In this document: piece by piece, positions 13,177 through 63,251 of the stretch
Position numbering within the stretch: position 1 is the stretch's first letter
How the letters are laid out: the number at the start of each line of letters is the position of its first letter
NCBI GenBank assembly: GCA_001780275.1
Contig: MFGB01000023.1
Location: 69,375-133,374 of the forward strand
Reading direction: 5' to 3'
DNA: 64,000 nt
Source: Candidatus Falkowbacteria bacterium RIFOXYA2_FULL_47_19
GTDB lineage: Bacteria > Patescibacteriota > Patescibacteriia > Patescibacteriales > UBA12075
The notes under the pieces: model-generated
Told to the model about the DNA's origin: nothing
Databases searched by the model: none
The model's input: only the letters and a program-made list of their open reading frames with translations
Made by a program: the position numbers and the translations under genes

Positions 13177-13218
13177 TCGACTTCAATCGACAATCGAAAA
13201 TCGTCAATCGAAAATCAC
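13177..13218. repeat. AATCGAAA-type word repeat
   Basis: The sequence is tcgacttcaatcgacaatcgaaaatcgtcaatcgaaaatcac. It overlaps the rpmG stop codon. Confidence 0.7.
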
Positions 13219-13370
13219 TTCGTTTCTTTGTGCTTGACGTGCTTCTTGCAGTACTTGCAGTACTTGTTCATCTCCAGGCGGCCCTTCAGGGTCTTTTTGT
13301 TCTTGCGCGAAAAATAATTGACGCGCTTGCACTCCGTACACTCTAATTTTATCATGTTATCCTGCGACAT
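13215..13370 (-). CDS. rpmG: 50S ribosomal protein L33
   Basis: Below the ORF-track cutoff. Hand-translated: [51 protein letters not shown]. It shows the CxxC...CxxC zinc-ribbon L33 signature and ends with TGA. Confidence 0.9.
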
Positions 13371-13476
13371 ACAATTCGATAACAGAAAACAGACTTACGG
13401 TGTCTGCCTTATGTTAATTTAATATTTACTTAATTATAGTAATATAAAGAGGAAAAAAAGTCAATAACCGCGAATA

Positions 13477-13499
13477 TAAAAAAACATCCCCCCGGGATG
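13477..13499 (-). terminator. Rho-independent terminator after the glutaredoxin-like gene
   Basis: The minus strand reads CATCCC-GGG-GGGATG followed by a T-run. Confidence 0.6.
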
Positions 13500-13530
13500 C
13501 TTCCGCCATGCATATATTATTCACTTTCCC

Positions 13531-13812
13531 TTAACCTTTAAAAATAGCCTCTAATAAGATCTCGCGGTCATAACCTACATGAAAATCCTTTTTGCCGTTT
13601 TTTACGATGACAATTACCGGGATGCCTGATTGGCCGGATACGCTGATCATTTCCTTGGCCCGTCCGTAATCCGAGAGCACGTTATATTCGGTAAAAACAA
13701 TATTATGTTCAATTAAAAAATCCTTTGCCATTCGGGAATACCTGCACGCAGGGCTCGAATACAGAATTACCTCGATTATATTCTTCTTTCCGTTAATACT
13801 GACCTCGTTCAT
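13531..13812 (-). CDS. Glutaredoxin-like (NrdH/Grx family) protein
   Basis: ILYSSPACRYSRMAKDFLIEHNIVFTEYNV carries a CxxS motif and the thioredoxin-fold layout, including GIPVIVI. Confidence 0.7.
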   Translation of the reverse strand: MNEVSINGKKNIIEVILYSSPACRYSRMAKDFLIEHNIVFTEYNVLSDYGRAKEMISVSGQSGIPVIVIVKNGKKDFHVGYDREILLEAIFKG

Positions 13813-14035
13813 AAGCGATACGGCAGATTAATTTTATATTTTCATAATTAATCCGTTTTTCCCAAAATTAAACAGAGAATCCCTAAAGGCGGCGGATTCC
13901 CCGCGGCTTTTAAAAACTCTCCGGGTATTTAAATCAAACAAATCAAATATGGTCTTACAATATAATAGTAATATTAAAATAGTGTTAAAACCTGATAATC
14001 TAAAGATTAAATTTTTGAATAAATCATCCAGTAAA

Positions 14036-14064
14036 CAAAAAAACGGGAATTTCTCCCGTTTTTT
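14036..14064 (-). terminator. Rho-independent terminator after desulfoferrodoxin
   Basis: The minus strand reads ACGGGAGAAATTCCCGT followed by T7. Confidence 0.65.
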
Positions 14065-14090
14065 GCCGTTATTAGGTAAAAAATGATTGT

Positions 14091-14465: not shown

Positions 14466-14468
14466 ATT

Positions 14469-14568
14469 TTAGGCGTTAGGCTCTAGGATGTTAGGCGTTA
14501 GGATGTTAGGCCTTAGGGTGTTAGGCGTTAGGATATTAGGCGTTAGGGTGTTAGGCGTTAGGATGTTA
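14469..14568. repeat. Tandem array of ~15-bp units built from TTAGG(C/A) words
   Basis: The units are gttaggcgttaggat / gttaggccttagggt / gttaggcgttaggat / attaggcgttagggt / gttaggcgttaggat. There are no unique spacers. Confidence 0.85.
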
Positions 14569-14596
14569 TAAATTCTAAAAGCCTAGAGCCAAGAGC

Positions 14597-14950
14597 TTAT
14601 ATGTTATTATAGATTAACTTATTTAATATTCTCATAACTTCATTCAATAAACCATCAACCGAACCGTAATCATTGATAGTGCGGTAATGCAATCTTTTCG
14701 CGATTTCTATTTGCGTTTCCAATTCGGATCCGGACGCATATGCGATCAATAAAAAACGTCTAAACTCCCCTTTTGCGCCCCTCATTTTACCTTCAGCGAT
14801 GTTTGATGGCAGAGACACAGCCGCTCTTCTTATTTGCGAACTTAATCCGTATTTCTCGCATTCGGGAAATTTTCCGGTCAACGCATACACGGCCACAACT
14901 AAATCCATCGATTTTTGCCATACAACCAAATCTTTGTATGTAGTACTCAT
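14597..14950 (-). CDS. Four-helix-bundle protein ('23S rRNA intervening sequence protein' family)
   Basis: Family-typical motifs are present: YKDLVVWQKSMDLVVAVYALTGKFP..EKYGLSSQIRRAAVSLPSNIAEG and ASGSELETQ. Confidence 0.85.
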   Translation of the reverse strand: MSTTYKDLVVWQKSMDLVVAVYALTGKFPECEKYGLSSQIRRAAVSLPSNIAEGKMRGAKGEFRRFLLIAYASGSELETQIEIAKRLHYRTINDYGSVDGLLNEVMRILNKLIYNNI

Positions 14951-14977
14951 AGATATCTAAAGCCTAAGGCCTAGAGC

Positions 14978-15559
14978 CTAATAAACTTCCGCCTTCACCT
15001 GATAATATCCCTGAGGGTGGCCGCAGGCCGGACAGGCCGCGGGCGCGGATTTGCCACGGTGCTCGTAACCACACTGACGGCAGACCCAGACCGTTTCCTC
15101 ATCCTTCTGAAAAAGCGTTCCGCTTTCGAATTCGGCTAAAAGCTTTTTATAACGCTCTTCGTGGTGGGCCTCCGCCCGGGCGATCGAGCGCAGGCGGCCG
15201 GCGATCTCCGGCAGATTCTCCTTATTCGCTTCGTCAGCGAAATCCGGGTACATTTTCGTGTATTCGTGGTTTTCTCCCGCAATCGCCGCTCTGAGATTTT
15301 CCGCTGTCGTTCCGATCACGGTCGGCACTTCGGCCTCAACCTTGATATCGGCTTTTTTCCCATTTTGCTCTTCGAGTCCGTTGATCAGGCGCATGAGCCA
15401 TTTGGCGTGCTCCCGCTCCTGCTCGGCGGTTTCCAATAAAACAGCCGAAATCTGCTCATAACCTTCCTTTTTGGCGATCTTAGCATAGATCGTGTAACGA
15501 TTCCTGGCCATCGATTCGCCGATAAAAGCCTTCGCCAGATTGTTGATGGTATTTTGCAT
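14978..15559 (-). CDS. rbr: Rubrerythrin
   Basis: A ferritin-like di-iron domain (ARNRYTIYA...EQEREHAKW...AEAHHEERY) plus a C-terminal rubredoxin motif (CRQCG...CPACG). Confidence 0.9.
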   Translation of the reverse strand: MQNTINNLAKAFIGESMARNRYTIYAKIAKKEGYEQISAVLLETAEQEREHAKWLMRLINGLEEQNGKKADIKVEAEVPTVIGTTAENLRAAIAGENHEYTKMYPDFADEANKENLPEIAGRLRSIARAEAHHEERYKKLLAEFESGTLFQKDEETVWVCRQCGYEHRGKSAPAACPACGHPQGYYQVKAEVY

Positions 15560-15752: not shown

Positions 15753-15754
15753 TT

Positions 15755-17849: not shown

Positions 17850-17910
17850 AATTTTTGCGATTCTAATTAAACGCCTAAAGCCTAAAAACAGCATATCACT
17901 TTTCCCAAAA

Positions 17911-17938: not shown

Positions 17939-17951
17939 TGTTTTTGTTTTT

Positions 17952-21836: not shown

Positions 21837-21875
21837 GCCGCACCTCCGATAAAATATTAATTTACAAAGAACGCT

Positions 21876-21962
21876 CCCTTATTATAAACGCCCGGATGAG
21901 CGGTTATAATAAGGGGGCGGCGGGACGCAGGGACGATCATCCGTCTCTGCGTTCCCGCCGCC
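21876..21962 (-). promoter_or_regulatory. Two adjacent strong hairpins in the leader of prs
   Basis: The first is a 12-bp perfect stem: cccttattataa (21876-21887) with ttataataaggg (21904-21915). The second is a ~15-bp GC stem: ggcggcgggacgcag (21916-21930) with ctgcgttcccgccgcc (21947-21962). The RBS GGAGGTG and the ATG follow on the minus strand. Confidence 0.6.
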
Positions 21963-21970
21963 GTTTAATA

Positions 21971-22414: not shown

Positions 22415-22418
22415 ATGA

Positions 22419-26442: not shown

Positions 26443-26518
26443 GCCTGCCCCGTGATCCCGACGCTTCGGGATTTTACGGTGCCTGCCCCGTGATCCCGAC
26501 GCTTCGGGATTTTACGGG
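26443..26518. repeat. Two tandem 38-bp copies of a nested hairpin, starting 1 nt after the nadD-nadK stop
   Basis: The unit is gcctgccccgtgatcccgacgcttcgggattttacgg(t/g), at 26443-26480 and 26481-26518. The two copies are identical except for the last base. On the minus strand the first copy folds CCCCGU-AAA-AUCCCGA-AGCG-UCGGGAU-C-ACGGGG; in the second copy the outer stem is shorter (CCGU with ACGG). Confidence 0.9.
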
Positions 26519-35369: not shown

Positions 35370-35380
35370 ATTTTTCAGGG

Positions 35381-35467
35381 CGGAGGGAGTGGGATTTGAA
35401 CCCACGGTAGGCGTTAACCCACAACAGTTTTCAAGACTGTCGCCTTAAACCGCTCAGCCATCCCTCC
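35381..35467 (-). tRNA. tRNA-Ser (anticodon UGA)
   Basis: Hand-folded: acceptor GGAGGGA/TCCCTCC; anticodon arm ACAGT-CTTGAAA-ACTGT; long variable arm; T-arm GTGGG-TTCAAAT-CCCAC. Confidence 0.85.
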
Positions 35468-35517
35468 ATTCTAAATATCGAGTGTCAAATCACCGTTCAA
35501 CACTCGACATTTGATTG

Positions 35518-35607
35518 CGGAGAGGGAGGGATTCGAACCCTCGAGAGGCTTTTAAGACCCCTAGCACGTTAGCACCGTGTCGCTTTCGACCACTCAGCCA
35601 CCTCTCC
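35518..35607 (-). tRNA. tRNA-Ser (anticodon GCU)
   Basis: Hand-folded, 90 nt: acceptor GGAGAGG/CCTCTCC; anticodon loop GTGCTAA; long variable arm; T-arm GAGGG-TTCGAAT-CCCTC. Confidence 0.8.
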
Positions 35608-35637
35608 GAAGTATCATTATTTTTTATTTTTCGCGAT

Positions 35638-35784
35638 GGATTCGCCCAGTCATCCGACTGGACGCCGGGTCGGATGACCCGGCGAACCCTCGAGAGGCTT
35701 TTAAGACCCCTAGCACGTTAGCACCGTGTCGCTTTCGACCACTCCCCGCCCGAGGCGGGTCCGCCTTGGGCGGAAGCCACCTCT
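35638..35784 (-). pseudogene. tRNA-Ser(GCU)-derived pseudo-copy, truncated at both ends, with a 30-nt insert in the D-loop and a 40-nt insert in the T-loop
   Basis: It is identical to the neighbouring tRNA from position 3 through the T-loop, apart from two GC-rich inserts. The D-loop insert is cccgcccgaggcgggtccgccttgggcgga (35745-35774). The T-loop insert is gcccagtcatccgactggacgccgggtcggatgacccggc (35644-35683). The 3' acceptor strand is missing. Confidence 0.8.
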
Positions 35785-35797
35785 TTATAAAATATTA

Positions 35798-36049
35798 TTA
35801 TTTAATCGTATCACGCAAAAGATATTTTATCCTTTCTCTGCCCTGACCAGACTTTAAAAATTTCTCTTCCGTTCTAGCATCTTTTTCTGATTTGAAAACT
35901 TCATAATAGACCAAAACCCAGGGTCCATTATTGTTTGTAAAATCTGATTTTCGAAAATTATGTTCTTTTATCCGTCTTTTTAAATCAGAAGTAAATCATT
36001 TATATAACTTATTGTTTTTTTCGCTTTTTAGTATGTAAACATAGAACAT
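35798..36049 (-). pseudogene. Small GIY-YIG nuclease-domain gene (83 codons) with an in-frame TGA at the conserved YIG glycine; AT-rich
   Basis: Hand-translated: MFYVYILKSEKNNKLYK*FTSDLKRRIKEHNFRKSDFTNNNGPWVLVYYEVFKSEKDARTEEKFLKSGQGRERIKYLLRDTIK. The TGA is the complement of 35996-35998. It aligns with the Gly in the LY-x-G-x-T-x-D-L motif of the UPF0213/GIY-YIG family. Confidence 0.75.
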
Positions 36050-36061
36050 AACGAATTCAGC

Positions 36062-36109
36062 CCACTCCCCGCCCGAGGCGGGTCCGCCTTGGGCGGAAGC
36101 CACCTCTCC
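36062..36109 (-). repeat. Second copy of the tRNA-Ser 5' segment carrying the same 30-nt D-loop insert (direct repeat flanking the GIY-YIG gene)
   Basis: ccactccccgcccgaggcgggtccgccttgggcggaagccacctct is repeated at 35739-35784 and 36062-36107. This copy also includes the complete 5' end GGAGAGG. Confidence 0.85.
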
Positions 36110-36182
36110 ATGCCTATATTTTATTATTTCCCTGATTTATGCTATAATTACTATATAAAAATAATCAAAAAAAGTCAAATAT

Positions 36183-39559: not shown

Positions 39560-39578
39560 GGCTTAATGGCATTCCACT

Positions 39579-39667
39579 GATTCGTGATTCGTGTAAATTC
39601 GTCGGTTATTCGTATTATTCGTCGCATAAACGAATTTCACGAATTTATAACGAATCTACACGAATCG
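39579..39667. repeat. ATTCGT / ACGAAT word array forming a long imperfect hairpin between convergent recG and mpg
   Basis: The sequence is gattcgtgattcgtgtaaattcgtcggttattcgtattattcgtcgcataaacgaatttcacgaatttataacgaatctacacgaatc. Confidence 0.85.
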
Positions 39668-39687
39668 ATTGGTCGCAACTGCCATAT

Positions 39688-40263: not shown

Positions 40264-40272
40264 TGCTACGAC

Positions 40273-40305
40273 GGGCAGAGACGCGATTAATCGCGTCTCT
40301 ACCGG
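40273..40305. repeat. Hairpin CCGGTAGAGACG-N-CGTCTCTGC (copy 2, opposite orientation); it overlaps the radA stop
   Basis: The sequence is gggcagagacgcgattaatcgcgtctctaccgg. On the minus strand the radA codons ACC CGG TAG form the start of the motif. The mpg ATG is ~10 nt downstream. Confidence 0.8.
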
Positions 40306-41642
40306 GTTATCTTCTTAACGATCTCTTCCAGTTTTTTCACTTTCGTCAATTCAATTCCATCGACTTTGGCGTTAAAGTCAGGAATTATCGCTTTAGTAAA
40401 ACCGAGCTTCCGGGCTTCATCAAGCCTGGCCTTAAGCTTACCTATGTTGCGAACCTCCCCGCCCAGGCCGACCTCGCCCAAAACGATCGTCTTGCGGTCA
40501 ATCGTCTGGTTTAAAAGAGAAGAGCTGATCGCTAAACAGACGGCAAGGTCCAGGGCGGGGTCGCTTACCTTAAGCCCGCCGACAATATTTAAAATAATAT
40601 CCTGGTTGCTTAAATTTATCTTGGCGCGTTTAGTAAGGACGGCCGACAAAACCTGCAGCCGGTTAAGATCGAAGCCGGAGGCTTTCCTCTGAGGGTAGCC
40701 GAAAACGGTCTTAGTAACCAAGGCCTGAATCTCGACTAAAAACGGCCGCGTACCTTCCATTACGGAGCTTATGACCGTACCGGATATCGATTCCCCTTCC
40801 CCTAAAAAAATTCCGGCCGGATTCTTTATTTCCTTGAATCCTTCTCCGGTCATTTCGAATATCCCGAGCTCATTGACCGAGCCGAACCGGTTCTTAGTCG
40901 CCCGCAATATCCGGAAATCCCTGGCCGGATCGCTTTCCAGGTAGATTACCGTATCCACCACGTGCTCCAGCTGCTTAGGACCGGCGACGCCGCCGTCCTT
41001 GGTAATGTGGCCGACCAGTATCACGGCGATATTTCTCCGCTTGGCTATCTCGAGGAATTTTACGGCCGCCGCCCTGATCTGGTTTATGCCCCCGGCCTCT
41101 CCCGGCAGTTCGGAGGAATAGACCGTTTGCACGGAATCTATCACCGCTACCGACGGTTTAAGATCGATCAGGCCGGCGACTACTTTATCGACGTCGGTTT
41201 CGCCGATGAATTTGATGTTGCCGAGGCGACATCCGAGACGCTCCATCCGGTCCTTGACCTGTCCGGCCGATTCTTCGCCGCTAACGTAAACCGCTCCGCC
41301 CTGGCCGCTTGATCCGGCGATCGCGTCGGCTATCTGAGCGAGTATCGTCGACTTTCCTATGCCCGGTTCGCCGGAAATAAGCGTCAGCGACCCCCTGACC
41401 AAGCCTCCGCCCAAACAGCGGTCAACCTCTCCTATCCCGGTAGGGATCCGAATGAGCCCGCCCTCTTTTATCTTATCCAAATCGATCGCTGGCGCCGGTT
41501 CCGCCCGTATTTCTCCGTTTTCTCCGGTGTTTCCGGCCGAAAGCGTTCCCCAGCCGCCGCATTCCAAACAACGCCCATTCCACTTAGAGAATTGGGCGCC
41601 GCATTTATTGCAGGAATAAATTGTTTGGGTGTTGTTGGACAT
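40299..41642 (-). CDS. radA: DNA repair protein RadA/Sms
   Basis: N-terminal zinc ribbon (CNKCGAQF..CLECG), Walker A (GEPGIGKST), the KNRFG motif and a Lon-like C-terminal domain. Confidence 0.9.
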   Translation of the reverse strand: MSNNTQTIYSCNKCGAQFSKWNGRCLECGGWGTLSAGNTGENGEIRAEPAPAIDLDKIKEGGLIRIPTGIGEVDRCLGGGLVRGSLTLISGEPGIGKSTILAQIADAIAGSSGQGGAVYVSGEESAGQVKDRMERLGCRLGNIKFIGETDVDKVVAGLIDLKPSVAVIDSVQTVYSSELPGEAGGINQIRAAAVKFLEIAKRRNIAVILVGHITKDGGVAGPKQLEHVVDTVIYLESDPARDFRILRATKNRFGSVNELGIFEMTGEGFKEIKNPAGIFLGEGESISGTVISSVMEGTRPFLVEIQALVTKTVFGYPQRKASGFDLNRLQVLSAVLTKRAKINLSNQDIILNIVGGLKVSDPALDLAVCLAISSSLLNQTIDRKTIVLGEVGLGGEVRNIGKLKARLDEARKLGFTKAIIPDFNAKVDGIELTKVKKLEEIVKKITR

Positions 41643-41831
41643 GACTATTTAGATATCTATCACTTGCGAATTGTAACCGCGATATTGAATATTATAATTT
41701 TAGTTAATACGGATCTTCACGTTTAGCGAAGGTTATATGTTTTTCTTTTCTATATTCTCCGTTGATAATGGATATTGGGATATTATTAGCGGCCTGAGCA
41801 TTTAATATAAAACGATACAACTTAAAATTGT

Positions 41832-41862
41832 AGCATAATATCCAATATCTAATATCCAATAT
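41832..41862. repeat. 31-bp exact repeat (copy 1) of the GATATTGG word family
   Basis: agcataatatccaatatctaatatccaatat is identical to 48480-48510. The inverted partner ggatattgggatattat lies at ~41770. Confidence 0.85.
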
Positions 41863-41890
41863 CCGACATCAATAACGCTCAAGATAACGA

Positions 41891-42670
41891 TTATTCCGCC
41901 GGGACATTCTTGTCCGCCTTCTCCAATTCTATTTTAACCATCTTCTCCAGATCTTCATAGCTTATCTCTCCCATCACCTCCTGATCGTTGACATACATGA
42001 ACGGAATGCCGTTGATCCCGAGCGCGTCGGCTTCTTCTATGTTGTCGTATATCGCTTTTTTCGGCCGGGACGCGTCCAGGCATTCGTCGAAATTACCCCG
42101 GTCAATGGATATCGTGTCGGCTATCTTATCGAAAGTTTCCCGGCTGAAATCGGCGTTATATTCATAAAGGAAATCGTGATAGGGCCAGAACGCTCCCTGC
42201 TCGAAGGCGCATCTGGCGGCCAGGGCGGCCCGGAAAGAAGCGGAGCCCTGGTCATTCTCGGGATAGTCTTTCCAGACCAACTTTGTCTTGTATTTATAAT
42301 TCTGGAGTATTCGCTTTAAAATCTGCTCCTGTTTCCGGCAAAAATCGCATTCAAAATCGGCAAAATAGACGATCACGACCGGGGCGTATTTGTCTCCCGT
42401 GCTGGGGTCCAGGTCGGTTATTATCGGCCCGGCAAGCATGTCTTTAAGCGACGGATTTTTAGTGATGTAGGGATCGTCTTCGGTGTAATCCGTGTTGATA
42501 TAGATTTTTTCCGATGACGGCTGGCTCATCGCGATGTTCGCCTCCATATTACGGTAGCCCCACTCGAGCTTCCAGAACAGCAGCAAGACACCGATCACCA
42601 AAAACGTTCCTAATGACGCGGACACGAAAAGCGGAACTGTATATTTATTACCTTTAGATGATTTTAACAT
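41891..42670 (-). CDS. Membrane-anchored DsbA-family thiol:disulfide oxidoreductase
   Basis: An N-terminal TM segment, a CxxC motif (FADFECDFCRKQ), a thioredoxin-fold length and GINGIPFMYV. Confidence 0.7.
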   Translation of the reverse strand: MLKSSKGNKYTVPLFVSASLGTFLVIGVLLLFWKLEWGYRNMEANIAMSQPSSEKIYINTDYTEDDPYITKNPSLKDMLAGPIITDLDPSTGDKYAPVVIVYFADFECDFCRKQEQILKRILQNYKYKTKLVWKDYPENDQGSASFRAALAARCAFEQGAFWPYHDFLYEYNADFSRETFDKIADTISIDRGNFDECLDASRPKKAIYDNIEEADALGINGIPFMYVNDQEVMGEISYEDLEKMVKIELEKADKNVPAE

Positions 42671-42724
42671 AAAATATAATTTAACCTTAATTATCCGCTT
42701 ATAATGGATTAAATCCGATCAAGG

Positions 42725-43390
42725 CTACTTAGCCTGCCAATTGGCGCTGTCCACTTTCCAGGCGCCCATTTCTTTCGTGAAATTTATTATTATATCCTGG
42801 TCGAAGGACCGGGAAACGTTACTGGTCGAACTGGCGGCCTCCCGCCGGATAGTTCTAACGAGGACGCTCGCTTCCCCGGTGTAATCATCAAGATCCATGA
42901 TCTCCTGGGTAACCGCCTTAGTGACGATGCCGTAATACAGGCTGTTATCGATCCCCTTTTTTTGTTCGCCGGCGACAAAGGTATCGGCCCAATTCTTCAT
43001 GCGCTGACTCATGAATATTTTAAGATCGGTAACATTGCTGAAATTCGACTGGTTGGAGTAACTGCCGAATCGTTCGGAAAAAGAAGCCGCCATCCGCAGA
43101 AGATCATATTTACCGGCGTAATCGTCCCCCGGTTCTTTCGTTATCACCACTTCTTTTTCCCCGGTCTTCTCGACCGGATTTTCGGTAACGACTATCTTTT
43201 TGGGCTCTTTTACGACCTGGACGGTATTTTCCACCGGGATGACGGTATTCGTTACGCTTGCCGGCTGCTTCCTCCACCTGCCTAAAAAATCATAGAAAGA
43301 AAACCCGTCGAAAAAAATAACGTAAACCACTCCGCCAAGAAGCAGGATACCTAATAATATTATGATAACGCCTATTAACCGTCTTTTCAT
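42725..43390 (-). CDS. N-terminally anchored protein, possible VirB8-like (NTF2-fold) T4SS component
   Basis: A single N-terminal TM segment (LIGVIIILLGILLLGGVVYVIFF) plus a ~130-aa C-terminal domain. It lies directly downstream of the VirB4-like gene. The assignment is positional and topological only. Confidence 0.3.
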   Translation of the reverse strand: MKRRLIGVIIILLGILLLGGVVYVIFFDGFSFYDFLGRWRKQPASVTNTVIPVENTVQVVKEPKKIVVTENPVEKTGEKEVVITKEPGDDYAGKYDLLRMAASFSERFGSYSNQSNFSNVTDLKIFMSQRMKNWADTFVAGEQKKGIDNSLYYGIVTKAVTQEIMDLDDYTGEASVLVRTIRREAASSTSNVSRSFDQDIIINFTKEMGAWKVDSANWQAK

Positions 43391-43431
43391 ATTAGTGAGC
43401 TTTAAACAGGATCGTATTTACGCTTCCCGGC

Positions 43432-45354
43432 CTATATTTCCGCGCCGCCCGCTTTGCCGGATTTATCGCTTTCATTTCCCATCTCCGCGGCAAATTCTTT
43501 TTTTGCTTCCTCGATCTCGAGAAGCTGCCTGGGGTCGGAAGTGATAAGCTGATCTTCAGTATATGAAGCCACGACTTTAATGGCCGCGTGTTTGCTGCCG
43601 GCGAAAAATATGCCTTCTCCCACGCCGCATTCCAAAAGCAGGTATTTTTCCCCTTCGGTCAAAACGAACACTTTCTGTATCAAGTCGATCGCGGCGGTCG
43701 ATTGCTTAAGAAGGAGCTGCAGGGACGAATTGGTCACGATCGCCTGCCCGTAAGGCGAAACCAGAAAGTCGTTCACGTCCTGCGTGATCGTGGTTACTCC
43801 CAGATAATATTTACGGCAGCGTTTTACCAGGGCATAAATGAATTTCGCGCTGTCTTCGTGCTGCATGAGCCACCAGGCTTCGTCTATTACCAGTATTCTT
43901 TGCTTGGTTTCGCTCCTGACAACGTTCCAGATATAATTTATGACCATATAGATAGCGATCGGCCGAAGCTCGTCTTCAAGGTCCCGGACCGAAAAGCATA
44001 CCAGCTGGTTATCCATTTTGACGTTCGTGGGATTATTGAAAAGCCCGGAAAATGTGCCCTGGGTATATTTACGGAGACGAAGAGCCAGGTCGTTGCCGCC
44101 CTCCATGCCCTCAAGAATGTCCTGAAAATCCTGCATGATCGGGGGTTCCACTTTGGATAGATCGCAGTCGGGGGTTACATCCTTCTTGGCATAGGTTTCC
44201 AATAGCGCCCGATCAACCACGGAATCTTCTTCATGGGTAAGATCACCGAGCATGAGCCGGATAAGCCCCTTAACCGTTATTACGGCGCTTCTGATGATAT
44301 CGCCCGGTTTGGCGTCGCCTTCGATGGCGCGCGGCAGATCGAAGGGGTTGATCTTATTTTCGCTGGACAGGGAAACATTTATATAAGTGCCGCCGACGGC
44401 GTCCGACAAATGCTTATACTCGTATTCCGGATCAATAATGATAACTTCCGTACCAAGCATCAAGGAACGCAGGACCTCCAGCTTTATGGCATAGCTTTTG
44501 CCGGCGCCGGAAGTGGCGAATACGACCGTATTGGCGTTTTGCAGGCTGAAACGATCGAAGAGGATCAGGCTGTTGTTGTGGCGGTTTATGCCGTACAATA
44601 TACCGTTATCGGTGGTAAGCTCGCTGGAAATAAAAGGAAAGGACGAAGCGATGGGAGAAGAATTCATGTTGAATGTTATGTAAAGCTCGTCGTTGCCTAA
44701 AGGCAAGGTCGAATTAAATCCCTGCTCCGACTGATAAAAGACTTTTTTCGAATAAACCAGGCGGGAGCCGAAAATATTCTCTATTTCCCCGGTCATTTTT
44801 TCCAGTTCTTCCCTGGAATCGGAATAGATCGTGACATAAAGCGCGAATTGGAAGAATTTTTCTATTCCCTGGGTTAAAGCGTCGCGCAAGGCCTCTATAT
44901 CCCTTAAGGCCGTTTCCCTTAGGGGGTCGCGCGCGGCGCCTTTCTCGGCGTCGGATATGATCTGCGCCTCCAGGGCGCCGACTTTCTTTTTTAACTGTTT
45001 TAGAATTATCGAGCTTTCAACCGGATAGAAAAACATGGCGACGTCAAAAGTAGAATTCAGATTGATGATCGGCGCGAACCAGCCGACGCTTATGTAGCGG
45101 GGATAAGTGATGACAAAGAGGGTTCGGACGAATTTACCCCCCAATATCACGTGATTGGGGTTGATCTTCATGCTGGCCGGGGCGATCAGATCCTTGATGG
45201 ATACGATGCCGCGGCGGTATGTTTTTTCCTCTTCGATATATTCTTCGGTGATCTCTATCGAACGGCTTTCTTCCCTGATCCTGCGCTTTTCGGTTTCTTC
45301 TTTTTCCCGAACCAATTTTTCTTCATTTTTTTGTGCTTGTTGGGGTTGGAACAT
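43432..45354 (-). CDS. VirB4/TrsE-like type IV secretion ATPase (middle and ATPase portion)
   Basis: Walker A is VFATSGAGKSYAIK and Walker B is ILVIDEAWWLM. The upstream region (LIAPASMKINPNHVILGGKFVRTLFVITYPRY) is typical of VirB4. Confidence 0.8.
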   Translation of the reverse strand: MFQPQQAQKNEEKLVREKEETEKRRIREESRSIEITEEYIEEEKTYRRGIVSIKDLIAPASMKINPNHVILGGKFVRTLFVITYPRYISVGWFAPIINLNSTFDVAMFFYPVESSIILKQLKKKVGALEAQIISDAEKGAARDPLRETALRDIEALRDALTQGIEKFFQFALYVTIYSDSREELEKMTGEIENIFGSRLVYSKKVFYQSEQGFNSTLPLGNDELYITFNMNSSPIASSFPFISSELTTDNGILYGINRHNNSLILFDRFSLQNANTVVFATSGAGKSYAIKLEVLRSLMLGTEVIIIDPEYEYKHLSDAVGGTYINVSLSSENKINPFDLPRAIEGDAKPGDIIRSAVITVKGLIRLMLGDLTHEEDSVVDRALLETYAKKDVTPDCDLSKVEPPIMQDFQDILEGMEGGNDLALRLRKYTQGTFSGLFNNPTNVKMDNQLVCFSVRDLEDELRPIAIYMVINYIWNVVRSETKQRILVIDEAWWLMQHEDSAKFIYALVKRCRKYYLGVTTITQDVNDFLVSPYGQAIVTNSSLQLLLKQSTAAIDLIQKVFVLTEGEKYLLLECGVGEGIFFAGSKHAAIKVVASYTEDQLITSDPRQLLEIEEAKKEFAAEMGNESDKSGKAGGAEI

Positions 45355-45413
45355 GCTTGTTGGATCGCTCTTAAAGATTTTAATAAGGTTTATACGGACT
45401 TATCGCCCAGACG

Positions 45414-46103
45414 CTAGTTATTGAACCTTAGCTGGTTCACGTCCGCGAGGTTCTGATTGGCCGAGGTGGTCGGATTATACGAATTATAATATAGCTCAAT
45501 AAGACCTTGGGTGTCCAGCTGGATCGCGTTTAAGCCGACGGAGTTCAAGCCTCCGATTATGTGCTCGACCCGGTGCGTCAGGTCTATACGGCGGCGAAGA
45601 AATTTTTCCTCTTTCATCTTGATAAGGGTTGTCGGCTTGAAAACATCGATGAAACGGGAAAAAAATCCCTTTTGCGTATCGGAAAAAAGATTATAAGGCA
45701 CAACGATATAAAAACGCTTATTCATGATCTTGCTCATGGATATGAGCTCGCTTATGTACTGGATATACTCCGCCGTTTGCATCTTTAAAAGCTCATTGGT
45801 CTGTTCTTTCTCTTTCTGTTTTAAAGTTTCCATATAGTTTTCGATGTTGAGCTCGCGGGACTGAATGACTATCTGCAGGGGGAAGCTTATATTGTTCAGA
45901 AAGCTTACGTAAGCCGAAATTATAGCGTTCTGCTCTTCTTCGCTTTTTAGGGCGAAATTAATGCTGGAAACCAGGATAACCGCCCGGAGGCTCCCGTCGC
46001 GTAAGATCACCGTGTCTTCCTTGATCTCGGCTATATCAAGATATTTCTGGGTGGAGATGCTTATTTTGTGCCTGGCTAAATTTGGCGCCTTTTTTTGGGG
46101 CAT
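45414..46103 (-). CDS. Protein resembling the N-terminal domain of Gram-positive VirB4 proteins (split VirB4?)
   Basis: IAEIKEDTVILRDGSLRAVILVSSINFALKSEEEQNAIISAYVSFLNN matches the N-terminal pattern of Tn916 Orf16-type VirB4 as I recall it. It is a separate ORF 59 nt upstream of the ATPase. Confidence 0.45.
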   Translation of the reverse strand: MPQKKAPNLARHKISISTQKYLDIAEIKEDTVILRDGSLRAVILVSSINFALKSEEEQNAIISAYVSFLNNISFPLQIVIQSRELNIENYMETLKQKEKEQTNELLKMQTAEYIQYISELISMSKIMNKRFYIVVPYNLFSDTQKGFFSRFIDVFKPTTLIKMKEEKFLRRRIDLTHRVEHIIGGLNSVGLNAIQLDTQGLIELYYNSYNPTTSANQNLADVNQLRFNN

Positions 46104-46135
46104 ATCTGAATAGGATTACGAATTACTTATAAAAT

Positions 46136-46612
46136 TTAAATTTTGATGTCCAGCTCCGATTTTATCTTAGACATCTTGTTTTGGGGTCCGTTTTCGCCGC
46201 GATAAGCTCCCTGAGTATCCACGATCAATGACAATTCCGTCAAACGCGAACTGCTCCACATCTTACTCTGCGTCTTGGGAGCCTCTTCCACGATCTTTAT
46301 CTCTTTTTCCGGCGACAGCGTTTCCTGCCCGGTAGCGTTGTTCCAAACCCTCAAAAACGGCCGTTTGGAGGTCTGTAGGAAATTCAGGACGAAAAAATGG
46401 AACGGCATGCCGTTGATCTTCAGAAAAGCGACTACGCCGCCCATAAAAAATATCACGATGGCCATGGTTAAAAACAGCGAAAAATCGAAAAGCTTATAAC
46501 AAGCGCCGATTATGACAAAACTCGTGAGCATTATAACGAATTGCCGGCTGGTTATGGGGCCGAAGATCTTATCCTCGACATCGATAAATTGCGGGACGGT
46601 GAACTGTTGCAT
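46136..46612 (-). CDS. PrgI-family (VirB3-analogue) membrane protein
   Basis: The start is moved to MQQFTVPQFIDVEDKIFGPITSRQFVIML, followed by two TM helices. This is the PrgI family signature. Confidence 0.65.
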   Translation of the reverse strand: MQQFTVPQFIDVEDKIFGPITSRQFVIMLTSFVIIGACYKLFDFSLFLTMAIVIFFMGGVVAFLKINGMPFHFFVLNFLQTSKRPFLRVWNNATGQETLSPEKEIKIVEEAPKTQSKMWSSSRLTELSLIVDTQGAYRGENGPQNKMSKIKSELDIKI

Positions 46613-46626
46613 ATTATAAGCGACGC

Positions 46627-46730
46627 GTTTTCGTTTGTTTCGTAATTTTTCGTTATATTCGTGTTTGGTGTTATTATAACAAAAACACGAAAATAACGAA
46701 TATCCGCGAAACAAAACGAACAATTAAAAT
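46627..46730. repeat. TTCGT / ACGAA word array forming a ~100-nt imperfect hairpin upstream of the PrgI-like gene
   Basis: ttcgttatattcgtgttt pairs with aaacacgaaaataacgaa (one mismatch). The outer arms are tcgtttgtttcg and cgaaacaaaacga. Confidence 0.8.
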
Positions 46731-46737
46731 CCTTTGT

Positions 46738-48261
46738 TTAAAACCTCAAATCCTTATTTAAATCCATAATAGCGTTGAATTCTTCCTGGGTCAAATATTC
46801 CGCGTTCGCTTTTAAGCGGTCGATAATAACGGCTTCTATGCTTTTATGCTCTCCGATACTCTCCTGTCCGATGGAAAGATAAAGTTTGTAGAGCGGGCTT
46901 TCGCGCCAGGCTTTTATTCCTAATAACCTCTGGCTGTAATTATCTTCTTCCAATAATTTTATCTTTCCCTTGATACTGGTAGCGGCAACGGCCGGATCGT
47001 CGCTTAAACGTCGAAAATCAATAAGGCTCATTTCCCCTAATTCGTCTACCGGCCCGGTCAATTTGGTTTTAGGGACATACTTGATGTCATCCATCCTGGT
47101 TTTTCCGGGGAGCGAGGCCTCGCTTCTGGCCTGAGCCATACTTACCCGTCCCGGAACGGCCGTTTCTTTCGGTTTTTCGATGATCGGTGCCGGTGCCATA
47201 GGGCGGATAATCGGCGGGGACGGCGGCGGCAAATCCGGGATCGGCTTATAAATGCCGGCGGTTTTCGGCGCGGATACACCGCTCGCCAAGGGCAATACGG
47301 ATTCTTCTTTTTTCTTAAGGTCGATCACGGCGGCTTTTTCCGGCGACATCTGTCTGACAGCGGAATCGGTTTTTAAATCGATGGCCGGAGGCAATATTAC
47401 GGGAGCCGTTCCTTTATCCTTCTGCTGGTCGTTTTTCGGTTTCACCGCCAATTTGCTGAAATCATAAGCCGGATCGGCGGATCCGCCGAGATCCTTGGCG
47501 ATTTCGGCTTTCTTCGCGGGCGCGTCTTCGGGTAATTTCATCTTAACCGGCGGTTTTATCTTTTCCGCCTGTTTGAGCTTCTGTTTTTCATTTTCCGCCG
47601 CGGCCATAATGCCGTCGACCGACTTTTCGTCGAGCTCCAATCCGCCTGAATTTACCGGCCGCATCAAGGCCAGCTTCGCGTCTATCTTGTTCCGCGTGCC
47701 GCGCAGATACGTTTTTAATACCGACCGCAAGCGATTGACGAGGTCCTCCGAACTTAAATTTATCTTCGCGGCCGTTATGACGCCGTTAATAGCCTCTTCG
47801 ACGCGTTCAGCCGTCACTTCGACCTGTTCGCCTGCCCGCTCCAATGTCTTGGTAAGCATCTTCACCTCTTCCTCGTCCTCCGGCGAAAAGAAAAAATTAG
47901 AACTGCGCACGGCCGCTTCGCTGGCCCGTTCTTTCGCCCATTTATCAAGCTCATCCCCAGCCGCGGCGACCGCTTCGCCGGCTTTAAACCCCAAATAATC
48001 AGCTACACCTGCAAACACCCTTGTTTTTAGTTCTTGCACCAGCTGTTCCGCGTGGCGTCCGTCCAGATTGTATTCAAAGACGAAATATTTATTCAGGTCC
48101 AAAAGTGCGATATCCCTGACCATAACCCTCATTACGACGCTTGCCAGATTGACGCTGTGCTTCTTTTCCATTTCCGCGACCGCCCGCAGCGTTTCCGGGG
48201 AAGATATTTTCGCCCGAAGTTCCCGGGGAAGCTGATTGTATTTTTGTAAGTATGTGATCAT
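46738..48261 (-). CDS. Hypothetical protein, low-complexity Pro/Ala/Lys-rich centre
   Basis: 507-aa ORF in the T4SS-like operon. No motif recognised. Confidence 0.5.
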   Translation of the reverse strand: MITYLQKYNQLPRELRAKISSPETLRAVAEMEKKHSVNLASVVMRVMVRDIALLDLNKYFVFEYNLDGRHAEQLVQELKTRVFAGVADYLGFKAGEAVAAAGDELDKWAKERASEAAVRSSNFFFSPEDEEEVKMLTKTLERAGEQVEVTAERVEEAINGVITAAKINLSSEDLVNRLRSVLKTYLRGTRNKIDAKLALMRPVNSGGLELDEKSVDGIMAAAENEKQKLKQAEKIKPPVKMKLPEDAPAKKAEIAKDLGGSADPAYDFSKLAVKPKNDQQKDKGTAPVILPPAIDLKTDSAVRQMSPEKAAVIDLKKKEESVLPLASGVSAPKTAGIYKPIPDLPPPSPPIIRPMAPAPIIEKPKETAVPGRVSMAQARSEASLPGKTRMDDIKYVPKTKLTGPVDELGEMSLIDFRRLSDDPAVAATSIKGKIKLLEEDNYSQRLLGIKAWRESPLYKLYLSIGQESIGEHKSIEAVIIDRLKANAEYLTQEEFNAIMDLNKDLRF

Positions 48262-48345
48262 GGGTTGGATATTATTTTTTCGTGTTAGTGCGGATTTTGA
48301 TATTTATTGAATATCCCATATCTTTCTTTATTTATATTGTTCTTT

Positions 48346-48510
48346 GATATTGGATATTAGATATTGTGATACAGGAAAAAATTGTTTCTATGATATAAAA
48401 ATATCATGGCCGCTAAATTCGGAAATCAGATACGGAATATTAGATATCTATTTTATTAGAGTGCGTAATTTAAAACTGCAGCATAATATCCAATATCTAA
48501 TATCCAATAT
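48346..48510. repeat. MITE-like unit: 20-bp perfect terminal inverted repeats ~125 bp apart; includes 31-bp exact repeat copy 2
   Basis: atattggatattagatattg (47-66) pairs with caatatctaatatccaatat (48491-48510). The segment 48480-48510 is identical to 41832-41862. Confidence 0.75.
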
Positions 48511-48525
48511 TCCGGTTTCGATTAT

Positions 48526-49260
48526 TTAACCCCTGACAATTCTCTTTTCCATCTTCCTTATCTCCTCATCCAGTGCTTTGCGCTCAAGGCTGCCGGCCGG
48601 ATATTTATTCGCTTCAATGCGCAGATCTTCTATTTTTGCTTCCTCACTGATCTCTTCTTCGATGGCCATGCGCTCAAGTCCGCCGGCCTCGTAATTCTCC
48701 TCTTCTTTCTTTAATTCGTCTATTTCCTTTTCTTCCTCCGTTCTGGGGGCGCCGGCGACGGAACGCGCCTTGCTTAGATCCTCCTCGCGTTCGATCGGGA
48801 TTATCTCCCACTTTTCTACCGGCACGCCATTAAGGCTCTCCGGAAAGAACTTAAGATTCCGGTAAAGGGATAAAAGCTTCCTGACCATCTCTTTCTCAAA
48901 GTCGTCAAGGCGCTGGCAGTTCGGCGAGTAAGTAACGTACTTCGTCAAAGCGACATTATCGAAGATCCCGCTGCCATTCGTCCTGATAAAATCCCGAAGC
49001 CAGTTCCGGACGCTCGGGGCATGCGGAGATCCGTCCAGTATAAAAGTCTTATGCGTCAGTTTTTCCGGGTTCTTATAAAGCGCGTATTCCAGTTCGTTTT
49101 TGAACTTAACATCTACGGCTATAAAATCTATGATATCGTCGTTTAATTCTTCCAGTAACGTATAATCATCCAACTCGAACACATCGCCCAAATTTCCTTC
49201 AAAAAGTTCCAATGTATCCTGTTTCGCCCCTTGGTTGGTATTGTTGTTAATATTCTCCAT
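48526..49260 (-). CDS. Hypothetical protein with an acidic C-terminal repeat
   Basis: 244-aa ORF. The C-terminus contains the repeated AGGLERMAIEEEI / AGSLERKALDEEI. Confidence 0.5.
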   Translation of the reverse strand: MENINNNTNQGAKQDTLELFEGNLGDVFELDDYTLLEELNDDIIDFIAVDVKFKNELEYALYKNPEKLTHKTFILDGSPHAPSVRNWLRDFIRTNGSGIFDNVALTKYVTYSPNCQRLDDFEKEMVRKLLSLYRNLKFFPESLNGVPVEKWEIIPIEREEDLSKARSVAGAPRTEEEKEIDELKKEEENYEAGGLERMAIEEEISEEAKIEDLRIEANKYPAGSLERKALDEEIRKMEKRIVRG

Positions 49261-61048: not shown

Positions 61049-61071
61049 TTATTTATATAAATATTTAAAAA

Positions 61072-61755
61072 TCATTCCGCTAAAATCTCCTTGTAAATAT
61101 TCACAATCTCCTCGTCGCTGAATTGCCCGATCATGGCTTCATCGGCTCCGGAGCTTATGAGGAGCGTGCGCAGATCGGCCGCACTCATCTCTCCGCCGAA
61201 AACCTTGGCCGCGTCCGGTGTTTCGCCGCCGGAGCTTTCCGCGGCCGGAATCGCAGTATTGGCCCGGTTCAGTTGTTCAAGGATATCCGCCATGGAATCG
61301 GCCGGAGCGGGGGTCTTGCCCGCTTCATCAGCATCGGCTGACGCCTCAGTACCGTAACATTCCCGGTCTTCAGGGCAATTCGGATCATGCTCGGAATCTA
61401 TTTCGTTTTTATCCAAAAACCCGTCGCTGTCGCTATCTTCGAGATACGGAGAGGTTTTATAAAGATAAAGTTCGTCGCCATCGGACAAGCCGTCGCCGTC
61501 GGTATCTTTAGAGTATAGATCATCTTGTTCAGAGTTTGTATCAAGGGGGATTACACTATTAATTGCGCCGCTATTATTAATCCCGGACAGGTTATTTTTA
61601 AATTGCGCCGACCAGAGGAATATGATAAAAATAGTAAAAAAACCCAAAACCACCAGGGATATCTTCTGGTTCTTATTAAGGCCGGGCTGGATAGGCGCAT
61701 ATTCCGGCTCCCTGTTTTCCTGCTTGCTCTCAAAACCTTGTTCGTTGTTTAACAT
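61072..61755 (-). CDS. Membrane-anchored protein with thrombospondin type-3-like calcium-binding repeats
   Basis: One TM segment (ISLVVLGFFTIFIIFLW), then DTDGDGLSDGDE and DSDSDGFLDKNE (DxDxDG repeats). Confidence 0.65.
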   Translation of the reverse strand: MLNNEQGFESKQENREPEYAPIQPGLNKNQKISLVVLGFFTIFIIFLWSAQFKNNLSGINNSGAINSVIPLDTNSEQDDLYSKDTDGDGLSDGDELYLYKTSPYLEDSDSDGFLDKNEIDSEHDPNCPEDRECYGTEASADADEAGKTPAPADSMADILEQLNRANTAIPAAESSGGETPDAAKVFGGEMSAADLRTLLISSGADEAMIGQFSDEEIVNIYKEILAE

Positions 61756-61838
61756 TAATATATAAAAATAATTATATTTTATTCAGGTTGAACTTTTTAC
61801 CAGTTATACACAATACGGCAATTAAATTATAACATAAT

Positions 61839-62687
61839 TTACCTCAAAACACCAAATAATTTTAACCAACCATCAAGACTTAGTTCCTGGGCCCTGATCA
61901 TTTCGTCGAAACCGGCATCGCGAATCTTTTGCCCCGCTTCTTCATGTGTAATATGATACCCTGAGGCCAAATTATTCTTAAGCATCTTTCGTCGGGAGCT
62001 GAATCCGATCCTGACTAACTGAAAAAACTTTTTTTCGTTAATTTTCGTTCCGGTCCAGGGCTGGCCGCCCTCTCGGATGGATAATTTTATGATCGCGCTA
62101 TCCACTTCCGGCACCGGCCAAAATTTATCTTTCGTAACATAACCGATTATTTGCGGTTCGGCAAAGAATTGCACGGATACCGATAGTAGGCTCATTTTCC
62201 CCGGCTTGGCCGCGACCCGTTCCGCTACCTCTTTTTGCAGCATCAAAACCATCATCTCCGGCTTATTTTTTAATTCGTAAACCTTGCGCAAAAAAATTGA
62301 AGTGATGTTGTAAGGCAGATTAGCGACTATTTTAAAGTTTCCAATTTCCAATTTCCAATATCCAATTTCCGGTATGAAATCCAGAATATTGGTATTAATT
62401 ATTCTCACATTCTTCGCTTTACACTCTTTTAATCTATCGCCTAAAACCATAGCCAGTTTATCGTCCAGCTCCACGGCTATCACCTTTCCGGCCTTTTTAG
62501 CTAATCTTTCAGTTAAATATCCTAATCCCGGCCCTACTTCCAGAACCGTATCATCCTTGGATAACCCGGCTGCTTCAACGATCTTTTCATACGTCTCTTT
62601 ATCCACTAAAAAATTCTGCCCGCGCGAACGGGCAGGGATAATAGCGTGCGATTGGCACAGACTCTTGGTTTGCCGCAATAAATCCAT
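61839..62687 (-). CDS. rsmA: 16S rRNA (adenine1518/1519-N6)-dimethyltransferase
   Basis: Motifs GQNFL, VLEVGPGLGYLT and ANLPYNI. Confidence 0.9.
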   Translation of the reverse strand: MDLLRQTKSLCQSHAIIPARSRGQNFLVDKETYEKIVEAAGLSKDDTVLEVGPGLGYLTERLAKKAGKVIAVELDDKLAMVLGDRLKECKAKNVRIINTNILDFIPEIGYWKLEIGNFKIVANLPYNITSIFLRKVYELKNKPEMMVLMLQKEVAERVAAKPGKMSLLSVSVQFFAEPQIIGYVTKDKFWPVPEVDSAIIKLSIREGGQPWTGTKINEKKFFQLVRIGFSSRRKMLKNNLASGYHITHEEAGQKIRDAGFDEMIRAQELSLDGWLKLFGVLR

Positions 62688-62689
62688 AA

Positions 62690-63178
62690 TTATTCAACTA
62701 AATTTCGAAATCCGGCGATCACGAAATCAGCGGCCTCGACTAATCTCTGGATCCGAGAGGCGCCGGGCCCGGGAACGCCGATCACTTTCGGCAGGGTGTC
62801 TGATATTCCGCCAACGATAGTGTCCAGCCCCACAGTGGGCATGACCCCGCCGCCTTTATACACAAATCCCTGCATGGGGCAAATTTTCGTACCACCCCTC
62901 TGGCCGGTAAACTGGATTTCGGAATAGTCCGCGCAAACATAATTTCCCGTCACTGGTCCGCATTGAGGACAATTCTTGCAGACACCGTCCGGAGGCGTTG
63001 AAACGCAAACCGGCTGATACATCGTTACTCGTCCGCCATCCTGCCAGGGCAGAGCGGACAGGGCCTCGGCCGTGTTCCGGAATTCCAGATAATTTCTTAT
63101 ATCCAGACCCAGAAAGGCCGCGCCACAAAACAAAATAATTCCGCCAATCATTAAAATTTTCTTTTTTTTATTCAACAT
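62690..63178 (-). CDS. Secreted or anchored Cys-rich hypothetical protein
   Basis: An N-terminal TM segment (ILMIGGIILFCGAAFLGL) and multiple Cys residues (CVSTPPDGVCKNCPQCGP..YVC). Confidence 0.5.
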   Translation of the reverse strand: MLNKKKKILMIGGIILFCGAAFLGLDIRNYLEFRNTAEALSALPWQDGGRVTMYQPVCVSTPPDGVCKNCPQCGPVTGNYVCADYSEIQFTGQRGGTKICPMQGFVYKGGGVMPTVGLDTIVGGISDTLPKVIGVPGPGASRIQRLVEAADFVIAGFRNLVE

Positions 63179-63251
63179 ACTAAAAAATCCTAAAACCTAA
63201 AGCCTAATAACATTATAGCAAAAACCGAACAAAATTGGTATAATAAAAACA

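Follow-up and report, generated by a model that had tools for sequence, protein, structure and literature searches.

What are the short words, such as TTAGGC, ATTCGT and GATATT, that recur in tandem between the genes of a 64-kb stretch of Candidatus Falkowbacteria DNA (the window, meaning the whole stretch), and do they act on those genes? The initial annotation described at least four families of intergenic word repeats, each locus carrying one word in direct and then inverted orientation. The arrays are real and intergenic, all of the named loci existing at or near the positions given for them. They are, however, one kind of element rather than four families: tandem 7-nt simple-sequence repeats, often accompanied by an inverted copy. 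This element takes three forms, namely a cassette built like an intervening sequence (IVS) of rRNA, hairpins without an open reading frame (ORF), and direct-only heptamer arrays in leaders. The genes flanking the loci include housekeeping genes (RecG, methylpurine glycosylase, RadA, a DsbA-like protein, Fpg, rubrerythrin, desulfoferrodoxin, L33 and KsgA) and a VirB4/TraG-PrgI type cluster, typical of the Candidate Phyla Radiation (CPR).

The repetition exceeds what base composition predicts. A scan for local clusters of one 6-mer in either orientation, with gaps of at most 40 nt, found seven loci with at least four copies, compared with a mean of 1.36 (maximum 5) in 100 first-order Markov simulations, and three loci with at least five copies, compared with 0.08; six of the seven are intergenic. 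Intergenic DNA makes up 10.7% of the window, and relative to this base the words are enriched two- to five-fold between genes: TTAGGC with 12 of 23 occurrences (2.5 expected, p=1e-6), ATTCGT with 16 of 52 (p=7e-5), GATATT with 26 of 120 (p=3.5e-4) and AATCGA with 10 of 55 (p=0.065). Given the seven loci against 1.36 and this intergenic enrichment, the possibility that the words are no more frequent than expected, which according to the initial annotation would refute its claim if a genome-wide scan showed it, does not hold in the window. Across the window and 45 related loci, drawn from Falkowbacteria and other Patescibacteria, word clusters are about six times denser in intergenic than in coding DNA. 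Over about 1 Mb, convergent gaps hold 35.7 word hairpins per 100 kb, compared with 19.5 between co-directional genes, 11.5 between divergent ones and 0.6 in coding DNA, all from small counts.

The unit is a heptamer. Tandem Repeats Finder assigns period 7 (or 7 and 8) to most arrays, within a range of 5-8 nt, and of the tandem repeats in 71 kb of intergenic sequence, taken from the window and related loci, 35 have period 7 versus 3.5 in simulations, adjoining periods being enriched only two- to four-fold. A limited vocabulary (CGAAT, CGATT, GATATT, TTAGG) recurs across different genomes. The arrays repeat a 5-11-nt unit directly and in tandem beyond chance, and the copy number of the cassette arrays differs between close relatives (the window and the sister genome L100); the direct arrays are unremarkable examples of heptamer simple-sequence repeats. 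As summarized in PMC4679880, Mrazek 2007 found that heptamers dominate prokaryotic simple-sequence repeats of 5-11 nt and ascribed them to polymerase slippage.

The IVS-like cassette occupies 14466-14985 and consists of three parts:

14951..14985, minus strand: 5' arm of the cassette stem, mRNA-strand sequence TTAGGCTCTAGGCCTTAGGCTTTAGA
14597..14950, minus strand: gene of an Avd-like four-helix-bundle protein ('23S rRNA intervening sequence protein'), occupying the stem's loop
14466..14596, minus strand: 3' arm region, with a second GGCTCTAGGCTTTTAGA copy at 14575-14592 followed by about 13 CCTAAC/GCCTAA units (14469-14568)

The gene encodes a protein of 117 amino acids that matches Pfam PF05635 (E=2.6e-36, 124.5 bits, cut-off 33.8), TIGR02436 (117 bits, cut-off 24) and PDB 2GSC (E=1.6e-24), an entry with five chains. 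The family is large, one query returning more than 6000 hits at E<=1e-10. We know of no function for PF05635/TIGR02436 genes outside diversity-generating retroelements. PF05635 is homologous to Avd (PMC10053308).

The cassette lies between the rubrerythrin and desulfoferrodoxin genes, a context shared with L100 and L105 and so found in at least three genomes. Its 5' arm, which on the plus strand contains GCCTAA twice plus GCCTAG (14953-14981), overlaps the rubrerythrin TAG stop with its first TTAGGC and ends 5 nt upstream of the four-helix-bundle ATG; the 3' array (TTAGGC x7 / TTAGG x12, period 7/8, in a single orientation) terminates 3 nt ahead of the desulfoferrodoxin ATG. In the minimum free energy (MFE) fold of the 525-nt cassette, 40 long-range pairs join the two arrays, and folds of the whole cassettes of L100, L101 and L102 contain 27-39 such pairs. 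The TTAGGC and GCCTAA arrays are two arms of a single long-range stem around the gene. When the pairing of upstream with downstream sequence was compared between nine cassettes and 483 control ORFs, of which the strongest were spurious ORFs in GC-rich loci, the duplex energy fell below the 5th percentile of the controls in six of the nine.

Most of the eight other CPR cassettes examined have the same build. Inverted word arrays also flank the gene in L105, L106, L109 and L005, and weakly in L107, and the arm words of other CPR cassettes include TAGC/GCTA, TAGGC/GCCTA, TTAGG/CCTAA and AGAAGT/ACTTCT. The syntenic cassette of the sister genome shares the build of the window cassette with other copy numbers: the upstream array has three or four heptads in the window versus eight in L100, and the downstream array about 13 units versus about five. 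A paralogous cassette elsewhere in the sister genome carries TTAGGC before the gene and GCCTAA after it. A search of about 1.3 Mb of related loci for further four-helix-bundle genes added only the L005 cassette, and extending the flanks by about 16 kb with DNA of the same population (L110 and L111) brought no further cassettes or strong hairpins, only an in-frame heptad array in a tRNA synthetase gene. Runs of N start in or next to the word arrays 3' of the four-helix-bundle genes in L102 (3415-3520), L108 (from about 985) and L109 (from about 1060); such masking at array edges means that the arrays are partly hidden in the public collection.

Four further elements pair inverted arrays without enclosing an ORF:

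39579..39667, no strand assigned: RecG/methylpurine glycosylase hairpin, ATTCGT x5, 7-nt loop, ACGAAT x4
46627..46730, minus strand: TTCGT hairpin, TTCGT x4 / ACGAA x3-4
41643..41890, minus strand: GATATT element in the gap between the DsbA-like gene and RadA, (GGATATT)4 at 41864-41836, loop of about 50 nt, (AATATCC)2 at 41785-41770
48262..48525, minus strand: GATATT element in the gap between the 244-aa and 507-aa genes, (GGATATT)4 at 48510-48484, loop of about 110 nt, (AATATC)3 at 48371-48346

The first lies between the convergent stops of RecG (39559) and methylpurine glycosylase (39688), and the RNA fold of 39560-39687 has a z-score of -4.9 on the plus strand and -5.9 on the minus strand. 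Its arms differ in a patterned way: the 24 word positions contain no mismatch, all nine being confined to the spacers (P=5.7e-6), whose lengths in one arm mirror those in the other. The same holds between species, since in L086, a more distant relative with 76% nucleotide identity to the window, 48 of 54 word columns are identical compared with 21 of 40 spacer columns (Fisher p=1.2e-4). The second hairpin fills the 125-nt gap between the stop of the 507-aa gene (46738) and the true start of the PrgI-like gene (46612), and region 46613-46737 folds with z -4.6. Start calls at this locus disagree: in the NCBI annotation the PrgI-like gene begins at a TTG within the hairpin (46723, 195 aa), and in that of JGI at the ATG at 46612 (158 aa, MQQFTVPQF...).

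The two GATATT elements are paralogous over most of their length; region 48262-48525 folds with z -3.3, and RadA starts about 125 nt beyond the (AATATCC)2 of the other element. In both (41819-41865 and 48467-48514), ATGCTRCARTTTTAA directly follows (GGATATT)4 and might constitute a mini-ORF, MLQF*; the copies differ at two sites, both of which are synonymous third-position changes.

The direct-then-inverted arrangement holds at these four loci. It does not extend to the TTAGGC loci, each of which is direct-only, the partner of 14469-14568 being 14953-14981 on the other side of the ORF. Of the two loci assigned to ATTCGT/ACGAAT, 39579-39667 stands, whereas 46627-46730, with one exact ATTCGT and one exact ACGAAT, is really TTCGT/ACGAA. 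The GATATT hairpins exceed the 40-100 nt attributed to them, with loops of about 50 and 110 nt between arms at 41770-41785/41836-41864 and 48346-48371/48484-48510. The coordinate of the fourth word, AATCGAAA, was garbled ('13177-18'), the array being 13184-13216 (CAATCGA x4.7); like those at 17866 and 63181, it is direct-only. The lack of T-runs is borne out at every hairpin, as is the position after stops or before starts.

The ORF-less hairpins have AT-rich stems of 20-40 bp. They start 4-58 nt downstream of stop codons, and in seven of ten co-directional cases fewer than 30 nt separate the hairpin from the preceding stop and fewer than 25 nt from the start that follows. Such spacing gives a promoter no room and argues against efficient termination.

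The direct-only arrays comprise the following:

17866..17890, minus strand: TTAGGC x2, direct, in the Fpg leader (GCCTAA x2 on the plus strand)
63181..63215, minus strand: TTAGG(C) x3-4, direct (CCTAA x3 on the plus strand), between a TATAAT-like box and the ATG of a 162-aa gene
13174..13216, minus strand: CGATTG/CGATTT heptads (CAATCGA x4.7 on the plus strand, 13184-13216), beginning at the rpmG (L33) stop
62338..62370, minus strand: GAAATTG/GATATTG x4.7 heptads, in frame within KsgA/RsmA, encoding PEIGYWKLEIGNFK

The true start of Fpg is the ATG at 17849 (MPELPEVE) and not 17894, and the sister genome keeps the 17866-17890 array in altered form. The longest Fpg ORF reaches 45 nt further upstream than this conserved start, which would place the TTAGGC array in its coding sequence. 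The 162-aa gene that follows the 63181-63215 array has no canonical Shine-Dalgarno sequence. The array at 13174-13216 is self-complementary via its TCGA core and is not present at the same junction of the sister genome. Just past the window end, a 827-aa class I tRNA synthetase gene carries four in-frame CGATTGC heptads (L110, 7033-7073); together with the KsgA array, these indicate that heptamer expansion also writes short repeats into proteins.

Sister genomes were compared, as proposed in the initial annotation. The ATTCGT hairpin is retained in L086; RecG/methylpurine glycosylase synteny was found in three loci only. The sister species L003, whose genes are 88-93% identical to those of the window, aligns with the window throughout, including one canonical terminator, except in exactly four hairpin regions. 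At three of these positions it carries other words, AGTATT heptads at two and GCGAAT...ATTCGC at one, and at the fourth GATATT in direct orientation only. AGTATT words replace ATTCGT at the RecG/methylpurine glycosylase position, GCGAAT...ATTCGC stands at the position of 46627-46730, and a 31-bp AGTATT-heptad hairpin (z -8.8) at that of 48262-48525. The word 'families' are thus not stable sequence families: both copy number and word change fast, and the hairpin build persists.

Two junctions could be compared more widely. The 507-aa/PrgI junction is 3-12 nt long in 24 of 33 relatives and the DsbA/RadA gap is short in most, and the insertions found there vary by lineage (ACGAAT, AGAAGTT, AATTTTT, AATTAAG and plain GC hairpins). 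Because most relatives are short at these junctions and lineages differ, the hairpins there are derived, lineage-specific insertions with fast turnover.

Shared words suggest that the ORF-less hairpins and the cassettes belong together. In L005 the word AGAAGT occurs on both sides of the 507-aa gene: upstream, at the 48262-48525 junction, in the arms of a four-helix-bundle cassette, and downstream, 1-2 kb from the cassette, in an ORF-less hairpin. In the sister genome (L101), 1.4 kb from a TTAGGC cassette, an ABC-transporter gene junction is taken up by an ORF-less hairpin of TTAGG x4 / CCTAA x4, with perfect (ATTAGGC)x7 arrays close by.

What, then, might the arrays do? The explanation that we favour, with a probability of about 0.55, is that they act as double-stranded RNA stems in polycistronic mRNAs, that is, as RNase III-type processing or stability elements and not as terminators. 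All of the loci would stem from a single process characteristic of this lineage. Short words, mostly of 7 nt, would be amplified in tandem by slipped-strand mispairing, the arrays expanding and contracting, and an inverted array copy arising nearby in many places would give long low-complexity palindromes. Transcribed within polycistronic mRNAs, the arms would form 20-40 bp of double-stranded RNA; RNase III or a similar enzyme would cut the stem, or the stem would block exonucleases, and the stability and translation of adjacent cistrons would be uncoupled. In the cassette, the stem would also hide the start codon of the four-helix-bundle gene. Precedents exist: in Haemophilus influenzae hmw1, a heptamer simple-sequence repeat is one arm of a long hairpin in the 5' untranslated region that is processed by RNase III (PMC12721329), and the terminal inverted repeats of an ORF-carrying IVS form a 28-bp stem that is cut by RNase III (PMC4990558).

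Several observations weigh against this explanation. We infer transcription through the hairpins, their cleavage and any effect on expression from the anatomy of the DNA. The GATATT element upstream of RadA folds weakly (z -0.9), and sense and antisense strands fold about equally, the sense strand being clearly better in only six of ten cases; with no asymmetry between the strands, the folds give no reason to place selection at the RNA rather than the DNA level. Words are kept while spacers drift, both within arms and between species, which a plain stem does not predict and which hints that the word itself is recognized, possibly by the Avd-like protein. The common origin of cassettes and ORF-less hairpins rests on two examples from other genomes: in the window, hidden Markov model and tblastn searches of the ORF-less hairpin loops detected nothing left of a four-helix-bundle ORF, and none of the cassettes found has ATTCGT or GATATT arms.

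Part of this evidence would fit palindromes that serve no host function, generated by heptamer slippage with inverted duplication or template switching, or spread as mobile palindromes resembling miniature inverted-repeat transposable elements (MITEs) or repetitive extragenic palindromic (REP) sequences. Such neutral or selfish elements would readily insert in single lineages at junctions that are short in most relatives, be swapped whole between genomes that are about 90% identical, and leave paralogous copies within a genome, as do the two GATATT elements of the window and the two AGTATT elements of L003; the in-frame heptads in the KsgA and tRNA synthetase genes reveal a pervasive mutational process, and folding lacks strand asymmetry. 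They would not be expected, however, to conserve words against drifting spacers, whether inside one hairpin or between genomes whose nucleotide sequences have diverged by about 24%, nor to be gained independently by several lineages at the same junction, and neither target-site duplications nor a transposase or a REP-associated tyrosine transposase (RAYT) gene were seen in the window. We regard this account as unlikely, if deserving of serious attention. The conserved words, with free spacers whose lengths are mirrored between arms, would be explained if the arrays were binding sites for an oligomeric sequence-specific protein, either a ribbon-helix-helix protein like omega of pSM19035 or the four-helix-bundle protein itself. 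Contiguous 7-nt units in direct and inverted orientation, the small vocabulary (CGAAT, CGATT, GATATT, TTAGG) that recurs across genomes, the pairing of related four-helix-bundle proteins with related TAGG/TAGC words and of the divergent L005 protein with a different word, the Avd homology of PF05635 (PMC10053308) and the five chains of 2GSC all point that way. Yet one small genome uses several unrelated words, the word differs at orthologous positions, one array lies between two convergent stops where no promoter is expected, and no candidate gene for a DNA-binding protein adjoins the ORF-less hairpins, which together make binding-site arrays quite improbable. A narrower proposal is that the Avd-like protein binds the heptads flanking its own gene, one word per subunit, and that the cassettes are a selfish or mobile IVS family of mRNA operons of which the ORF-less hairpins are non-autonomous derivatives; this we consider improbable.

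Termination is the least plausible role. A start 4-58 nt after stops, a density that peaks in convergent gaps and the folding of the RecG/methylpurine glycosylase hairpin on both strands, as expected of a bidirectional terminator, would suit non-canonical intrinsic terminators or attenuators that lack T-runs. Against this, the genome uses ordinary terminators of GC stem and T-run elsewhere, including at least eight other gaps of the window, and most of the T-run-less hairpins leave less than 25 nt to the next start, so that termination would silence the downstream gene. A consensus promoter and terminator scan of 39400-48700 gave counts equal to those of shuffled sequence and no match at the loci. 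Canonical intrinsic terminators were rejected on the AT-rich stems of 20-40 bp and the missing T-run, as the initial annotation had judged, and the non-canonical kind is very unlikely.

The ORF-less hairpins show small CPR genomes continually inserting and replacing, inside operons, long elements of a kind that forms double-stranded RNA, and this turnover bears on how organisms with few regulators set the relative expression of neighbouring genes. The inverted heptamer arrays around most of the CPR cassettes examined tie the four-helix-bundle genes to the puzzle of the rRNA intervening sequences and offer a concrete RNA or DNA partner for their proteins; if the Avd-like protein does recognize the flanking words, PF05635/TIGR02436 would gain its first cis-acting partner and a testable role. 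A literature search found no account of heptamer-word hairpins or operon-borne four-helix-bundle cassettes in CPR bacteria or Patescibacteria. For assembly and gene calling the hairpins call for caution as well, as a start called inside a hairpin and arrays masked as N illustrate.

Other identities were rejected. The arrays are not clustered regularly interspaced short palindromic repeats (CRISPRs), since their units of 5-8 nt and spacers of 0-5 nt contrast with repeats of 23-50 nt and unique spacers of about the same length. At gathering thresholds, Rfam detects only four tRNAs in the window; in E-value mode, sub-threshold matches resembling miRNA precursors on 46629-46720 reflect a generic long hairpin. 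The absence of a CRISPR or a REP consensus agrees with the initial annotation. Words like DNA uptake sequences were rejected because there is no enrichment outside arrays, and an assembly artefact on two counts: the contigs of NCBI and JGI agree exactly, and the build recurs in many independent metagenome-assembled genomes (MAGs). A RadA protein identical to that of the window is encoded on a Candidatus Falkowbacteria MAG contig (GCA_001778165.1) and a JGI aquifer contig.

Elsewhere, the window contains an apparent integrated element (1-11650) adjoining tRNA-Trp (11570-11643), within which the NCBI MAG contig starts (at about window position 8326). The element encodes a Zot-like ATPase (7242-7967), a Rep ORF2/G2P-type replication protein (8642-9442) and a large serine recombinase (9977-11584), a combination that, next to tRNA-Trp, suggests that this CPR genome carries an inovirus-like prophage. 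Just past tRNA-Trp a Bro-N protein is encoded (11736-12608), and a fused type I methylase/specificity ORF of 1042 aa extends past the window start, in DNA of 29-33% GC. A 3-kb AT-rich stretch at the window start that had seemed ORF-free is actually a long minus-strand ORF running off the window. Two GC-rich hairpins of high stability, side by side at 21837-21970 (MFE -69 kcal/mol for 134 nt), separate co-directional genes; they lack both a T-run and word structure. At 26443-26517, within the 183-nt gap that precedes the 25308-26336 gene, a 38-nt unit is perfectly duplicated in tandem (GCCTGCCCCGTGATCCCGACGCTTCGGGATTTTACGGT x2), each copy with a GC-rich hairpin; this is not a word array. The 813-nt gap at 35370-36182, highly structured throughout, contains two tRNA-Ser genes beside exact internal repeats of 62 nt (35534-35595 and 35683-35744, the first copy within tRNA-Ser(GCT)) and 46 nt (35739-35784 and 36062-36107), which look like a partial tRNA duplication left by an integrative element.

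Each of several known systems shares some features with the arrays. REP sequences and bacterial interspersed mosaic elements (BIMEs) are imperfect enterobacterial palindromes that lie between cistrons or at operon ends and act on mRNA stability at the RNA level; REPs repeat a single consensus hundreds of times and are associated with RAYT transposases. The window hairpins are likewise intercistronic palindromes, but their words differ between loci and at orthologous positions, there is no common consensus, and no transposase-like or RAYT gene occurs among the annotated ORFs of the 64-kb window. Among the features of MITEs, inverted arms and two-copy paralogous families are present, and no target-site duplication was recognized in the 64 kb examined. 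The ribbon-helix-helix protein omega of pSM19035 binds contiguous 7-bp operators, direct and inverted, at plasmid promoters, with one heptad and one cognate protein. This contiguous 7-nt anatomy is common to the window arrays; the window, in contrast, has several words and one locus between convergent stops, and no ribbon-helix-helix gene is found among the annotated neighbours of the arrays.

The TAACTGA repeats of Beggiatoaceae, cyanobacteria and Bacteroidetes (PMC4679880) are also tandem heptamers over-represented in intergenic DNA, often a few nt before starts that lack a Shine-Dalgarno sequence. They differ in being one genome-wide word, with 169 direct sets and one indirect set (PMC4679880), whereas the window uses many words, each locally, and half of its strong loci are inverted pairs. 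The (ATCTTTC)n repeat of H. influenzae hmw1 (PMC12721329) resembles the window arrays as a heptamer repeat by a start codon, with variable copy number and a role as a long hairpin arm. Its second arm is a G-rich region and not an inverted repeat copy (PMC12721329), and hmw1 is a single phase-variable adhesin locus in a pathogen, whereas the window arrays stand at many housekeeping junctions.

The 23S rRNA IVSs of Leptospira, Coxiella and Xanthomonas, which carry an S23p/PF05635 ORF, have the same protein family in the loop as the window cassette and, like it, complementary termini around the ORF, the stem being about 30-40 bp in the window cassette. In Coxiella the stem has 28 bp and is cut by RNase III (PMC4990558). 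Unlike these, the window cassette lies between protein-coding genes of an operon and not in helix 25 or 45 of 23S rRNA, no rRNA being present in the window, and its arms are tandem heptamer words of variable copy number. With the protein family and the stem in common and the 23S location not, the cassette would be classed as an element of IVS-like build rather than as a strict IVS.

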